DNA from: Reclinomonas americana ATCC 50394
Taxonomy: Eukaryota
Length of the DNA stretch: 20,000 bases
Reading direction: 5' to 3'
Assembly: GCA_048213135.1 (NCBI GenBank)
Contig: PS015289.1
Span: forward strand, 69,807-89,806
Positions 1 to 7,005 of this stretch are shown here, piece by piece (the first letter of the stretch is position 1; every line of letters starts with the position of its first letter). A program made the position numbers and the translations under genes. The notes under the pieces were generated by a model that saw nothing but the letters and a program-made list of their open reading frames with translations, was not told the origin of the DNA and did no database searches.

Positions 1-874
1 CTGTCTTCACCCCCGCTTACAATGTGCAGGCCATCTCGAGCAATGGCAACAGACAGCACGCCTCTCGTATGCCCTTCCAACTGTCGCACCTGCTCGCCAG
101 TCGCCAGCGACCACACTCGCAACTTCCCATCTTCGCCTCCACTCACAACTTTTTGACTGTCAAGAGTGACGGCGACACACGAGACCCATCCACTGTGACC
201 CTCGAATCGTCGCACCTCCTCTCCGCTCTCCAGCGACCACACGCGCACTGTGCTGTCGTCACTTCCGCTGACGATATGCAGGCCATCGAGAGTAACGGTG
301 ATAGATGGCACCCACTCCGCATGCCCCAGCAATCGTCGCACCTCCTCCCCAGTTGCCAGTGACCACACTCGCACTGTCCGGTCGGCACTCCCACTCACAA
401 CATGCAGGCCGTCGGGAGTGACGGCAACAGACAATACCCAGTTCGTGTGCCCCTCCAACCGTCGCACTTCCTCGCCACTCTCGAGTGACCACACGCGCAC
501 TGTCTTATCACAACTCCCACTCACTACATGCAGGCTGTCGGGAGTGACAGCGACCGAACGCACCATGTTCGAGTGCCCTTCAAGCCGTCGCACTTGTTCT
601 CCACTTGCCAGCGACCATACGCGAATTGTGCTGTCGTTGCTCCCGCTGACTACGTGTTGACCATCGGGAGAGACGGCGACCTCCATCACCCACTCAGTGT
701 GTCCCTCGAACCGCGCCACCTCTTCTCCAGTCACGAGAGACCACACTCGCACGGTCTTGTCACCGCTCCCACTCACGATGAACTGACCATGGGAAAGATG
801 GCGACAGAGGTCACCGCGGAGGTGTGTCCACGCAAGCACTTGCAGGGGAGAGAGGGAGGAGGAGCGGAGGACAT
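1..874 (-). pseudogene. WD40 array copy 1: 7 WD40 repeats, 1-nt frameshift near 790, 3' end runs off the window
   Basis: ATG at 874 in ACC-ATG context reads MSSAPPPSLPCKCLRGHTSAVTSVAIFP. The + strand has 'tgaccat-gggaaag' at 784-797 where paralogues have 'tgaccatcggga', so one base is missing and the frame hits TGA. With the base restored the frame is open to position 1 through GHTEWV, GHSNMV, GHTNWV, GHAEWV, GHSGWV and GHTRGV. The indel could be a sequencing error. Confidence 0.8.
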
Positions 875-1091
875 GGTGCGGGCGTGGGGAGAGAAGTGCG
901 AGTTTGAGTTGTCCTTTGTTGAAGGGACATGCCGGTGACTTCGGAACTCTTACGGCAGTGGCACACTGGTCTATCGAAACAAGGGTGCTTCACTTGGGAG
1001 GTACACTCTCAGAGACAGAATATTAAAGCAACTCATGGGCTGCTGTCTGTTGCGTAAAAACACGCAGTAAATGGCAAGGAAGAGCACAGAG

Positions 1092-1100
<9 letters not shown>
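875..1100 (-). promoter_or_regulatory. Conserved intergenic/upstream unit of the WD40 array (homologues at about 2654-2872 and 4903-5100, weaker at 6260-6430)
   Basis: Shared + strand blocks gtccttt..gggacatgcc.gtgacttc, ctcagagacagaa and ctgctgtctg.tgcg..aaaac.cgcag.aaatg.caagg. It is part of the duplicated unit and a regulatory role is inferred from position only. Confidence 0.5.
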
Positions 1101-1126
<26 letters not shown>

Positions 1127-1190
1127 GAGAGAGAGAGAGAGAGGAGGAGAGAGAGAGAGAGGAGGAGAGAGGAGAGAGAGAGAGAGAGAG
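1096..1190. repeat. (GA)n microsatellite, interrupted
   Basis: Read directly. Shorter GA tracts occur at the equivalent point of the other array junctions (about 1490-1508, 2866-2873, 3762-3777, 5105-5122, 6500-6562). Confidence 0.95.
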
Positions 1191-1549
1191 ACAACAACGA
1201 CGACGTCTCCTTCCCGTTCCCGTCCCGTCCCGTACCACCTACGACGGACGGTACGTACGTACGACGGTACGGTACGGACTCTCGTCGTACGTTAACCGTA
1301 NNNNNNNNNNNNNNNNNNNNNNNNNNNNNNNNNNNNNNNNNNNNNNNNNNNNNNNNNNNNNNNNNNNNNNNNNNNNNNNNNNNNNNNNNNNNNNNNNNNN
1401 NNNNNNNNNNNNNNNNNNNNNNNNNNNNNNNNNNNNNNNNNNNNNNNNNNNNNNNNNNNNNNNNNNNNNNNNNNNNNNNNNNNNNNNNNGGAGAGAGAGA
1501 GAGAGAGATCACAAGACAGCTCTCCTTCCGCCCTTCGCCACTCAGCGAG

Positions 1550-3809: not shown

Positions 3810-4902
3810 TCAAAAACAGTCCTCCGTCGAGAGCCGATGGAGAACGACTTCGGCTTCCTCCACAATGAAACAACGCAGCACGATCTCTGGCAAACAACGC
3901 GGTTCCTCTTCTTCCTCCTCTGCGCCCTCTTGCATCTCCTGCACGACGCGCATGGCTTGTCGAGCGCAGTCCAGCTCCTGCCGAGCGAGGCCACATGGCG
4001 TCGACCACACCCTCACCGTTCTGTCTTCACCCCCGCTTACAATGTGCTGGCCATCTTGAGCAATGGCAACAGACAGCACACCTCCAGTATGCCCTTCCAA
4101 CTGTCGCACCTGCTCCCCAGTCGCCAGCGACCACACTCGCAACTTCCCATCTTCGCCTCCACTCACAACTTTCTGACTGTCAAGAGTGACGGCGACACAC
4201 GAGACCCATCCACTGTGACCCTCGAATCGTTGCACCTCGTCTCCACTCTCCAGCGACCACACTCGCACAGTCGTGTCCCAGCTGCCGCTCACAACGTGGC
4301 GACCGTCTGGAGTGACGGCGACAGACGTCACCGTATTGGCGTGTCCCTCCAACCGTCGCACTTCCTCCCCAGTCGTCAGTCTCGTCAGTGACCACACGCG
4401 CACTGTCCGGTCGGCACTCCCAATCACTACATGCTGGCCGTCGGGAGTGACGGCAACAGACAACACCCGATTCGTGCGCCCTTCGAATCGACGCACTTCC
4501 TCGCCACTTTCGAGTGACCGCACGCACGTTTTTATCCACACTTCCACTAATGACGTGCTGACCATCAGGAGTGACGGCGACCGAGCGCACCATGCGAGAG
4601 TGCTGTTCAAATTGTTGCACTTGTTCTCCACTCACCAACGACCACACGCGAATCGTGCTGTCGTTGCTCCCGCTGACCACGTGTTGACCATCGGGAGTGA
4701 CAGCAACTGACTTGACCCAATGAGTGTGTCCCTCGAATCGCGCCACCTCTTCTCCAGACACGAGTGACCACACTCGCACGGTGTTGTCCTCACTCGCACT
4801 CACGGCGAGCTGACCGTCGGGAGAGACAGCGACAGACCAGATCATGCCAGTGTGACCACGCAAGCACTTGCTTGGGAGGGAAGGAGGAGGAGCGGAGGAC
4901 AT
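3810..4902 (-). pseudogene. WD40 array copy 4: 7 repeats plus C-terminal domain, 2-nt frameshift near 4520
   Basis: MSSAPPPSLPSKCLRGHT starts at 4902 in the frame of ORF 4180..5403 and continues in the frame of ORF 3810..4631. The minus strand reads GTGCGTGCGGTCACTC instead of the consensus GTGCGTGTGTGGTCACTC. There is also an in-frame 9-nt duplication (WSL-TRL-TTG, about 4372-4390) and a divergent end (LHRLSTEDCF*). Confidence 0.82.
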
Positions 4903-5170
4903 GGTGTGCGTTCGTGGAGAGAGAGAAACGGAGTGTGTGAGTGTCCTTTGATGTGGGGACATGCCGGTGACTTCGAAACTCTGAGGCCAGTGACGACACG
5001 CCTGAAGGTACATTCTCAGAGACAGAATATTAGAGAAACTCATGGACTGCTGTCTGCTGCGACAAAACGCGCAGAAAATGACAAGGGAAGAGCCAGGAAA
5101 CACGAGTGAGTGAGAGAGAGAGATTGAGAGCACAAGGCAGATCTCTTTGCGTCCTTCGCCACTCAGCGAG

Positions 5171-6259
5171 TCACAGTTGGAGACTCTTATCGGCGAAACA
5201 ACGATGGAGAACGACCTCGGCCTCCTCCACCAGGAAGCAACGCAGCACGATCTCCACCAAGCAGCGCGGATCATCTTCCTCCTCTTCCGTGCCCTCTTGC
5301 ATCTCCTGCACGGCACGCATGACTTGTCGAGCACAGTCGAGCTCCTGCCGAGCGAGACCACACGGAGTGGACCACACTCGCACCGTCTTATCACCGCTCC
5401 CACTCAAAACGTGCAGACCATCCGGAGTAACGGTGACGGACGTCACGCCTGCAGTGTGCCCCACCAACCGGCGCACCTCGTCGCCACTCGCCAGCGACCA
5501 CACTCGAATCATCCCATTCTCGCCCCCACTCACCACACGCTGACCATCGGGAGTGACGGCAACATACCAGACCCATCCCGTGTGACCCTCGAACTGTCGC
5601 ACCTCTGCACCAGTCGCCAGTGACCACACCCGCACTACCTTGTCGTCGCTTCCGCTCACAACGTGCCGCCCGTCGGAAGTGACGGCGACACACCACACGA
5701 TGTTGGTGTGTCCCTCCAGTCGTCGCACTTCTGCGCCACTCTGGAGGCACCACACGCGCACTGTTTTATCCCAACTGCCACTCACGACATGTTTACCATC
5801 GGGGGTGTCAGCAACAGATCGCACCATATTCGCATGCCCCTCACATCGGCGCACCTCCTCGCCAGTGGCCAGCGACCACACGCGCACAGTCATGTCCACA
5901 CTCCCACTCACAACGTGCAGACCATCGGGGGTGATGGCAACTGATGTCACATCTGCTGAGTGTCCCTCCATTCGTCGCACCTCCTCGCCACTCGCCAGCG
6001 ACCAAACGCGCATTGCGTTGTCTGCACCCCCACTGATAATGTACTGACCATCGGGAGTGACGACAAGCGAGCGCACCCGCTCAGTGTGGCCCTCCAACCG
6101 TCGCACCTCTTTCCCACTCGCCAGTGACCAAACGCGTATGGTCTTGTCATCACTTCCGCTGACCGCGTGCTGGCCGTCGGGAGTGACAGTGACAGAGAAG
6201 ACCATGTGAGTGTGGCCACGCAAGCACTTGCAAAGGAGAGAAGGAGGAGCGGAGGACAT
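5171..6259 (-). CDS. WD40 array copy 5: intact, 362 aa, 7 WD40 repeats at 42-aa spacing plus conserved C-terminal domain
   Basis: Complete ORF with ACC-ATG start. Repeats begin GHTHMV, GHTERV, GHSADV, GHANMV, GHTNIV, GHTGWV and GHTAGV at 126-bp spacing. Confidence 0.95.
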   Translation of the reverse strand: MSSAPPSLLCKCLRGHTHMVFSVTVTPDGQHAVSGSDDKTIRVWSLASGKEVRRLEGHTERVRSLVVTPDGQYIISGGADNAMRVWSLASGEEVRRMEGHSADVTSVAITPDGLHVVSGSVDMTVRVWSLATGEEVRRCEGHANMVRSVADTPDGKHVVSGSWDKTVRVWCLQSGAEVRRLEGHTNIVWCVAVTSDGRHVVSGSDDKVVRVWSLATGAEVRQFEGHTGWVWYVAVTPDGQRVVSGGENGMIRVWSLASGDEVRRLVGHTAGVTSVTVTPDGLHVLSGSGDKTVRVWSTPCGLARQELDCARQVMRAVQEMQEGTEEEEDDPRCLVEIVLRCFLVEEAEVVLHRCFADKSLQL

Positions 6260-6582
6260 GGTGCGCGCGTGGAGAGAGAGAAGGAGATAGTGAGTCTGTT
6301 CTTTGTCGGGACAACATCATGACTTCGGCACTGACGGACGAAGATCAAAGGCGACGCATTGCTTGTCAACATGGGGCGCTGCAACTGGGTGGTACATTCG
6401 CAGAGAGAAAGGAAATATCTTGAGTTACCGGCTTAGAAATCAAACCGCGAGGAGAAGAAGCAGGAAACACAATTGCAAGAAAGCAGAGAGGGTGAATAGG
6501 GAGAGAGAGAGAGAGAGAGAACACGAGGGAGAGAGAGAGAGAGAGAACACGAGGAGAGAGAGNNNNNNNNNNNNNNNNNNNN

Positions 6583-7005
6583 CACCTCCTCGCCAGTCGC
6601 CAGTGACCACACTCGCAAGGCCTTGTCACTGCTTCCGCTCACGATGTACTGTCCATCGGGGGTGACGGCGACAGACTGTACGATCGACTGCACGTTGGCA
6701 ATGTGCTCCAACTGGCGCACATTCTTTCCGCTCTCCAGCAAGCGCACGTAGATGGTGCTGTTTGCACACCCACTCACGATATGCTGTCCGTCGGGAGTGA
6801 TGGCAACAGACAACACATAGAAGAGGTGGTGTGCCAGTTGATTCACTTGCTCCCCACTCGCCAGTGACCACAGGCGCAAGGTCTGATCGTGACTGCTGCT
6901 CACAATGTGCTGTCCGTTCGGAGAAATGGCAACAGATGTCACACCATCCGTGTGTCCAAGCAAGCATTTGCAGGGGAGAGAGGGAGGAGGAGGGGCGGAG
7001 GTCAT
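6583..7005 (-). CDS. WD40 array copy 6: divergent, 5' three repeats visible, cut by gap 6563-6582
   Basis: MTSAPPPPSLPCKCLLGHTDGV start. Repeats 2 and 3 have lost the GH motif (AHHLFYV, EHIANVQSIVQSV). The sequence ends at the gap at WSLATGEEV. Confidence 0.82.

Follow-up and report, generated by a model that had tools for sequence, protein, structure and literature searches.

The first 7,005 nucleotides of a 20,000-nucleotide stretch of Reclinomonas americana ATCC 50394 DNA (GenBank assembly GCA_048213135.1, contig PS015289.1, positions 69,807 to 89,806 of the forward strand; hereafter the window) contain six WD40 genes of one family, all on the minus strand and arranged head to tail. In each copy whose blades can be counted, an N-terminal closing strand is followed by seven blades of 42 amino acids and a C-terminal tail of 65 amino acids. 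Purifying selection acts on the blade scaffold and on the tail, and the variation among blades is concentrated at five positions of the repeat, which the strand map of a predicted structure, taken with published WD40 rules, assigns to the propeller's top face. We consider it somewhat better than an even chance that the genes encode a lineage-specific family of generic modular binders, in which a variable top face is joined to a constant tail that serves as a handle.

Organization of the array and fold of the propeller

The six copies, designated g1 to g6 (Table 1), differ in their state: two are intact (g2 and g5), two are frameshifted (g3 and g6), and two are cut by gaps (g1 and g4). All four copies with countable blades (g2, g3, g5, and g6) have seven. 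The frame of g3 is broken by a net two-base deficit within the VRVW codons of blade 3, near 4518-4521; this copy also carries a three-residue insert in blade 4, and its last eight residues are unlike the C-terminal end of the other copies. One base is missing from g6 at about 789-790 in blade 1, beside a CCC run. These two frame breaks could be either the marks of pseudogenes or errors of the draft assembly. The intact g5 has a four-residue insert in the C-D loop of blade 2, and the 5' part of g4 is lost in a gap of 349 N at 3413-3761. The most divergent copy is g1, whose second blade has lost the VRVW tryptophan as well as the aspartate of the B-C turn. Tandem Repeats Finder reported 126-bp arrays with 69-78% matches at 45-776, 1833-2605, 3154-3412, and 5370-6187. 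A preliminary description of this DNA had proposed at least six head-to-tail paralogues with a fixed N-cap, 42-residue repeats (seven per complete copy) and a constant tail, and its coordinates and copy number proved right.

Intergenic spacers between gap-free neighbours (g1-g2, g2-g3, and g4-g5) measure about 260-320 bases. Besides the gaps at 3413-3761 and 6563-6582, the array region has one at 1301-1489. Comparison of the flanks of g2 to g6 suggests that they may be constrained untranslated or regulatory sequence. The 5' non-coding flanks of g3, g5, and g6 (e.g. 4903-5102, 2654-2853, and 875-1074) are 78-83% identical to one another and are more alike than the synonymous sites of the same genes (synonymous divergence, dS, 0.38-0.66). 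Pyrimidine-rich (TC)n tracts occur on the coding strand in the flanks of g2 to g6. The bases right before the ATG are also conserved, reading CGCACC in g2 and g6 and differing from this at one or two bases in g3 and g5.

We cut out and codon-aligned 34 repeat units, 32 of them complete. The units follow the pattern GH-T-x-x-V-x-SVAVTPDGQHVVSGS-x-D-x-TVRVWSLASGEEVRRLE, and the N-cap is conserved as MSSAPPPSLPCKCLR and variants of it. Pfam WD40 (PF00400) matched seven stretches in g2 (E 5.3e-79), seven in g5 (E 2.2e-83), three in g1, and four in the 3' part of g3. The DHSW hydrogen-bond tetrad of WD40 repeats consists of the His of GH, a Ser/Thr in strand B, the Asp of the B-C turn, and the Trp at the end of strand C (PMC3419727). 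Its residues are found at H2 in 31/32 units, S20 in 33/34, D24 in 32/34, and W30 in 31/32.

An AlphaFold2 model of g2, built from a 22-row alignment, predicts a closed seven-bladed propeller of 28 strands, with a mean predicted local distance difference test score (pLDDT) of 88.9 and block means of 93-99 over residues 11-290. By unit position, the predicted strands are A at 6-11, B at 17-22, C at 26-31, and D at 37-42. Residues 9-14 of the N-cap form the outer strand of blade 7 in this model and close the ring; therefore, the N-cap is the usual WD40 closing strand and no separate module. The top solved match to the model in a Foldseek search was the WD40 domain of PkwA (5yzv; template modelling score 0.98 on the target, root-mean-square deviation 0.9 Å, 41% identity); next came symmetric seven-blade propellers of designed sequence and WDR5.

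Only WD40-type Pfam families were matched in the array proteins, just 14-16 residues lie upstream of blade 1, and stop codons are found shortly upstream of each ATG, all of which agrees with the earlier view of stand-alone proteins without a NACHT domain. The possibility that these are orthologues of a housekeeping WD40 protein (THOC3 or WDR3) was rejected, as the corresponding Pfam scores are high merely from the consensus-like repeats and g5 falls below the THOC3 cut-off. The scaffold had also been called nearly uniform, which was overstated: blades of the same gene are 62-67% identical in protein (range 49-79%) and 68% in DNA. This level far exceeds that of ordinary WD40 proteins and lies below the ~85-100% seen where repeats are strongly conserved internally; protein identity reaches at least 85% in only 3 of 521 unit pairs.

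Variable positions and their rates of change

With unit positions numbered from the G of GH, the Shannon entropy in the 34-unit alignment was 2.85-3.21 bits at positions 4, 5, 7, 23, and 25 and no more than 1.73 bits at all 37 other positions. The 32 complete units carry 31 distinct five-residue combinations. On the strand map of the AlphaFold2 model, positions 4 and 5 lie in the D-A loop, position 7 at the start of strand A, and positions 23 and 25 in the B-C turn. A (V/L/I)-R1-R2-(V/L/I) bulge rule for WD40 hotspots (Wu et al. 2012, PMC3419727) names R1, R1-2, and D-1 as the residues that WD40 proteins generally use for top-face partner binding. Under this rule, the segment V6-x7-S8-V9 makes position 7 equivalent to R1, position 5 to R1-2, and position 23 to D-1. 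A similar layout was described for the HNWD repeats of fungi, in which codons 7 and 9 lie on either side of conserved codon 8 and codons 25 and 27 on either side of conserved codon 26 (Paoletti et al. 2007, PMC1805685), as the pairs 5/7 and 23/25 flank conserved residues here. The strand and loop map and the published WD40 rules together support the five variable positions as generic top-face hotspots of the predicted propeller. Three statements of the preliminary description were thereby borne out: that the residues after GH and beside the conserved D vary freely (about 3 bits, at these five positions only), that they are top-face positions, and that the same positions are hypervariable in the 42-residue repeats of HNWD proteins.

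The scaffold codons are under purifying selection, with a ratio of non-synonymous to synonymous rates (omega) of 0.18-0.22; between g3 and g6, the scaffold non-synonymous divergence (dN) is 0.08 and dS is 0.38. In 13 phylogenetically independent sister pairs of units, the residue differs at 35 of 61 variable-site codons versus 72 of 425 scaffold codons, and omega at the variable sites was 1.03 (bootstrap interval 0.58-1.73). Nei-Gojobori counting over all unit pairs gave non-synonymous and synonymous proportions (pN and pS) of 0.63 versus 0.70 at the variable positions, values that are saturated and uninformative. For likelihood estimates, we used a Goldman-Yang script written for this analysis, which matched the iqtree likelihood on scaffold sites; its p-values are nominal, since the trees behind them were built from 37 codons per unit in the presence of recombination. 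With the synonymous rate of the scaffold applied to the variable codons, omega was 1.79 on the 34-unit tree (likelihood-ratio test statistic, LRT, 24.4), 1.97 on the 6-gene tree (LRT 27.1), and 1.94 on separate blade-wise trees (profile interval 1.62-2.46), with p < 1e-6. Positions 4, 7, and 23 individually exceeded 1 in all three of these analyses, and no scaffold site did.

When the variable codons were given a separate synonymous rate, the corresponding ratio (beta/alpha) was 0.70 on the 6-gene tree (p = 0.32) and 0.55 on the blade-wise trees (LRT 2.95), neither of them different from 1. The fitted synonymous rate of the variable codons was 2.5-3.1 times that of the scaffold, equality being rejected on the blade-wise trees (LRT 14.8). 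In codon pairs encoding the same residue, synonymous differences were found in 6/20 variable versus 86/342 scaffold pairs, which is no difference (p = 0.60). The raised rate could stem from codon-usage constraint or homogenisation of the scaffold, from whole-codon micro-conversion, or from an artefact of the model. Between whole genes, variable-site dN over scaffold dS was 0.96-1.56, all six pairs lying at or above 0.96.

We read these results to mean that the pace of change at top-face residues exceeds that of the scaffold five- to tenfold and is no lower than that of silent sites. Diversifying selection on them, that is, an excess over neutrality, is unproven. The excess of non-synonymous change that had been anticipated at the top face was obtained under a shared synonymous rate (omega 1.79-1.97) and was not recovered in the sister pairs (1.03) or with a rate of the variable codons' own (0.55-0.70).

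Tail, relatives, and surroundings of the array

The tail had been described as one common tail in every copy, and it is both constant and selectively constrained: dN of 0.07-0.14 against dS of 0.33-0.69 (dN/dS 0.10-0.33) indicates purifying selection, and 32 of 67 tail columns are invariant with the product of a Reclinomonas expressed sequence tag (EST) included. Two helices are predicted, at residues 299-322 and 332-356 in g2 numbering, with an acidic loop GTEEEEDDP between them, and both appear in the full-length model as well as in a model of the tail alone. Helix 1 is amphipathic, helix 2 is strongly hydrophobic, and the net charge of the tail is -8. The tail probably needs a partner or self-association to fold.

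The tails lie at 5174-5374, 3813-4007, 2919-3119, and 1553-1753, all on the minus strand. Among 1.84 billion representative proteins, an exhaustive phmmer search found a sole relative of the tail, P0122 (E 6.7e-19, 66% identity), the 116-residue product of the Reclinomonas americana EST EC795383.1 (EukProt), which spans the last blade and the tail. Because P0122 derives from this EST, the family has a transcribed member in a jakobid. When g2 was searched against shorter proteins, P0122 was the only one with a EukProt label among the best 120 of 374 matches, the others being metagenome records or generic WD40 fragments. Comparison of the tail with proteins of near length gave 24 candidates, none at E <=0.01, and a profile scan of metagenome contigs gave 189 pattern matches and no relatives.

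Two identifications of the tail were tried and rejected. The PDB matches of the tail profile were chains of the ribosomal protein eL34 only, at chance level (E 0.58-0.65, 13 bits). The alignment is visually suggestive, CG.A.Q...R ... C..E..[IL]R.F.[IV]EE..V, yet statistically no better than chance; as printed, it sets tail Cys5 opposite one eL34 Cys, and Cys38 adjoins the CANC motif of eL34, whose CxxC motifs form two zinc knuckles. A C-terminal peroxisomal signal, which follows an SKL-type pattern, does not fit the ends -LQL, -LRL, and -MYL.

The first whole-protein search returned generic WD40 proteins with at most 62% identity. The propeller is closest to four metagenome proteins, P0021, P0023, P0049, and P0057 (55-62% identity to g2), which have the scaffold VAVTPDG..VVSGS.D.TVR.W.LATG.EVRRF.GH in common and vary at the same positions. 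In single-protein queries, the nearest named relatives of P0057 were in a metagenome-assembled genome of Gemmatales (Planctomycetota), and g2 (5174-6259) is 60% identical to that Gemmatales WD40 protein over 167/277 residues with no gaps. Of the 37 scaffold consensus positions, 28-29 are shared with Gemmatales-type proteins, 24 with a Rhodothermales genome, 21-22 with three cyanobacterial proteins, and 20-22 with three fungal proteins. Highly repetitive WD40 proteins are abundant in planctomycetes and cyanobacteria (Hu et al. 2017, PMC5587647). These likenesses offer a bacterial origin of the propeller as a lead; the Gemmatales likeness could be due to horizontal transfer or to convergence on the consensus. 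The setting of the array is eukaryote-like, with long microsatellites, sparse coding outside the array, and a family member in the Reclinomonas EST.

Most blades find their best DNA match in the blade of the same index in another gene, and mean DNA identity is 73% for the same index across genes versus 68% within a gene. Because the blades match by position across genes, the comparison indicates birth-and-death rather than concerted evolution. Between units, pS is 0.57 at scaffold and 0.70 at variable codons, near saturation, and the scaffold dS of the paralogues (0.38-0.91) makes them moderately old; their non-coding flanks can still be aligned between copies at 75-85%. The pair g3 and g6 is a mosaic: DNA identity is 93-98% in blades 6-7 and 76-89% in blades 1-4, blade 5 is unrelated, and synonymous differences number 22/88 sites in blades 1, 2, and 4 against 3/43 in blades 6-7 (Fisher p = 0.017). 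Such a pattern indicates blade-scale gene conversion or recombination between paralogues. The evolutionary mode implied by the original analogy with HNWD proteins did not hold, as the repeats of a gene are not highly conserved among themselves, concerted evolution is lacking, and the repeat number does not vary among the countable copies (four of four with seven blades).

Outside the array, the galactosyltransferase-like open reading frame (ORF) is the only other gene in the window that Pfam recognises. Scans of the whole window gave no tRNA genes and no Rfam matches, and the ORF opposite the array gave no Pfam match. Four further N gaps and long microsatellites interrupt the rest of the window, and numerous long (GA)n, (AC)n, and (TTC)n tracts were seen.

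Table 1. Features of the window, with positions counted from its first letter.
Feature	Position	Strand	Description
g1	7005..6583	-	N-cap and three blades, then 20-N gap at 6563-6582; three Pfam WD40 stretches
Spacer upstream of g2 (example)	6260..6562	-	Intergenic; pyrimidine-rich (TC)n tract, coding strand, at 6501-6562
g2	6259..5171	-	Intact, 362 aa; 14-aa N-cap, seven 42-aa blades, tail
g2 tail	5171-5371	-	Coding, stop codon included
g3	4902..3810	-	Seven blades and tail; frame broken in blade 3
g4	3410..2916	-	3' part only: end of blade 5, blades 6-7, tail (2.6 blades)
g5	2653..1550	-	Intact, 367 aa
g6	874..<1	-	N-cap, blades 1-7 (blade 7 incomplete); runs off window start
Short ORF opposite array	7238-7500	+	Hydrophobic signal-peptide-like start, then (GA)n tract and N gap
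Galactosyltransferase-like ORF	10001-10987	+	328 aa; PF01762, E 2.8e-10
75-bp direct repeat	11135-11280		Two copies
161-bp tandem repeat	15915-16386		2.9 copies, 86% matches

Comparison with known systems and possible functions

The fungal HNWD/NWD NLRs (Podospora anserina HET-E and HET-D as well as HET-R) resemble the array family in several respects. Both have a 42-residue WD unit, and in both the hypervariable pairs flank the strand-A residue and the Asp of the B-C turn, at 7, 9, 25, and 27 in the fungal numbering and at 5, 7, 23, and 25 here, with position 4 in addition. Multiple genes, pseudogenes (candidate ones in the array), and a degree of repeat exchange are likewise common to the two families. 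However, HNWD proteins have HET and NACHT domains, whereas the array family has none and, unlike them, comprises exactly seven blades, that is, one propeller. Blade identity in protein is 62-67% here and about 85%, up to 100%, in HNWD (PMC4986451, PMC1805685), and polymorphism or instability of repeat number was described for the HNWD/NWD family (PMC2873952). Concerted evolution of repeats is a feature of HNWD, whereas the blades of the array cluster by position and not by gene. Positive selection was found at four top-face codons of HNWD; the array family shows the same pattern of variability with selection not established. HNWD proteins lack the C-terminal tail. The array is not an HNWD-type system.

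In sequence and structure, the array family is closest to the highly repetitive WD40 proteins of prokaryotes (PkwA of Thermomonospora curvata; Planctomycetota/Gemmatales; Cyanobacteria). These are bacterial and lack the tail, whereas the present genes lie in tandem within a eukaryote-like genome. Prokaryotic proteins of this kind may carry kinase domains (PMC5587647), which the array family does not have. P0021, P0023, P0049, and P0057 have other N-terminal regions (coiled coils or signal-like segments), also missing from the array family.

The principle of coupling a top-face binder to a short, unvarying docking module is shared with modular substrate receptors, namely the F-box/WD40 proteins FBXW7 and beta-TrCP and the WD40/SOCS-box protein WSB1. 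With the propeller first and the helices last, the array family is like the WSB proteins and unlike the F-box/WD40 proteins; no F-box or SOCS box is detectable in the array tails. From jakobids including Reclinomonas, Horvathova et al. 2021 (PMC8134430) reported the WD40 proteins Gcp1-3, which are Pex7-like and, in jakobids and others, accompany the mitochondrial type II secretion system. Identity with Gcp1-3 was rejected on distribution: Gcp proteins are described as conserved across heteroloboseans, jakobids, malawimonads, and hemimastigotes, while the array tail has one relative in 1.84 billion proteins; the two are set apart by description and not by sequence. Hypervariable WD40 top faces as sensors of fungal NLRs and highly regular WD40 proteins in bacteria are already known, and no description of a family such as the present one was found in full-text searches on jakobid WD40 proteins, Reclinomonas americana nuclear gene families, or hypervariable protist WD40 arrays.

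The modular-binder reading can be put as follows. The family would have grown by tandem duplication in one lineage, with birth-and-death and occasional blade-scale gene conversion. Each gene would encode a stand-alone protein of ~40 kDa, probably cytosolic, in which the 5 x 7 variable residues form a top face, so that the binding surface would differ from paralogue to paralogue. Maintained by purifying selection, the tail would tie all paralogues to a single shared function, be it docking to a common partner or self-association, and the proteins would act as modular adaptors made of a variable binder and a constant handle. Several observations weigh against this reading. The placement of the tail in the full-length model is unreliable (pLDDT 45-71), and the tail modelled alone reached a mean pLDDT of 66.9 with a predicted template modelling score of 0.38. 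No relevant Pfam family was found for the tail (E up to 10 for four tails, and up to 0.1 for that of g2), the tail profile had no significant solved relative among PDB sequences, and a comparison with the ESM Atlas gave no usable match. The top-face assignment draws on the strand and loop map and on published WD40 rules, and part of the array may be decaying because two of six copies are frameshifted and one is degenerate.

Diversification of the top faces towards different cellular ligands was judged about twice as likely as an immune-type repertoire. Of the alternatives, the best placed, and still an unlikely one, is such a repertoire: a germline set of receptors for non-self, pathogen, or prey recognition, with a selected top face and a common tail that triggers one effector response. 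The variable positions coincide with those that are positively selected in HNWD repeats (PMC1805685), nearly every blade has its own five-residue combination (31 distinct among 32), and recognition families typically occur as tandem arrays that include pseudogenes and exchange blades. The shared-rate estimates (1.79, 1.97, and 1.94, with positions 4, 7, and 23 individually above 1) and the whole-gene ratios (0.96-1.56) point the same way, but omega in the sister pairs (1.03, interval 0.58-1.73) is indistinguishable from a lack of constraint, the separate-rate ratios are 0.70 (p = 0.32) and 0.55 (LRT 2.95), and the unit trees combine 37 codons with recombination, which inflates site tests. The blades are also old (unit pS 0.57-0.70, paralogue dS 0.38-0.91), their number is fixed at seven, and Pfam showed no NOD, HET, or other death or effector domain. 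A more specific version, in which a jakobid-like bacterivore would have captured a planctomycete-type WD40 gene, fused it to a new helical signalling tail, and expanded the fusion into a tandem, recombining repertoire whose 35 top-face residues are diversified by selection against molecules of prey, parasites, or viruses, is more doubtful.

Between these two in probability, and likewise improbable, is a family of substrate receptors for a ubiquitin-ligase-like machine, in which the tail would be an F-box- or SOCS-box-like docking helix and the propellers would pick substrates. A variable WD40 domain with a short conserved helical segment under purifying selection is consistent with it, and a WD40 domain with a C-terminal SOCS box is the known layout of WSB proteins. 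Expanded F-box families under positive selection are also known from nematodes (PMC8120010). The tail segment RCLPEIVLRCF of g3, which reads RCLPEMVLRCF in the Reclinomonas protein, resembles LPxEI, the start of F-boxes; against this, its spacing is one residue short of that consensus. Neither an F-box (PF00646/PF12937) nor a SOCS box (PF07525) was found by Pfam in the tails at the thresholds given above, and no F-box or SOCS protein was among the solved-structure profile matches. The least probable reading is that of a bacterial-type repetitive WD40 gene that was acquired horizontally and is drifting, the top-face variation being a lack of constraint and the array largely decaying. The 60% identity of g2 to the Gemmatales protein, the 28-29 of 37 scaffold consensus positions against 20-22 for fungal proteins, a variable-site omega compatible with 1, two frameshifted copies, and a degenerate g1 all agree with drift. 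However, scaffold and tail are clearly under purifying selection in all copies, the frameshifted ones included (g3/g6 dN 0.08, dS 0.38), and a related transcript exists in Reclinomonas. Moreover, W, R, K, M, D, and E are frequent at the variable positions, as they are in binding hotspots, and a propeller that is retained would not usually have a top face free of constraint.

The find is unusual in combining a family of stand-alone single propellers, a tandem arrangement in a deep-branching eukaryote, and a constant tail that belongs to no family described so far. If selection favours diversity of the top faces, the array would be an independent repertoire of variable binders outside fungi, plants, and animals; should the repertoire further have arisen by capture of a bacterial WD40 gene, it would be an NLR-independent, single-propeller counterpart of fungal HNWD recognition. 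If the variation instead reflects a division of labour among cellular adaptors, the family would be a clean natural case of specificity re-written on a fixed propeller, and also a candidate for a bacterial WD40 domain domesticated by a eukaryote.

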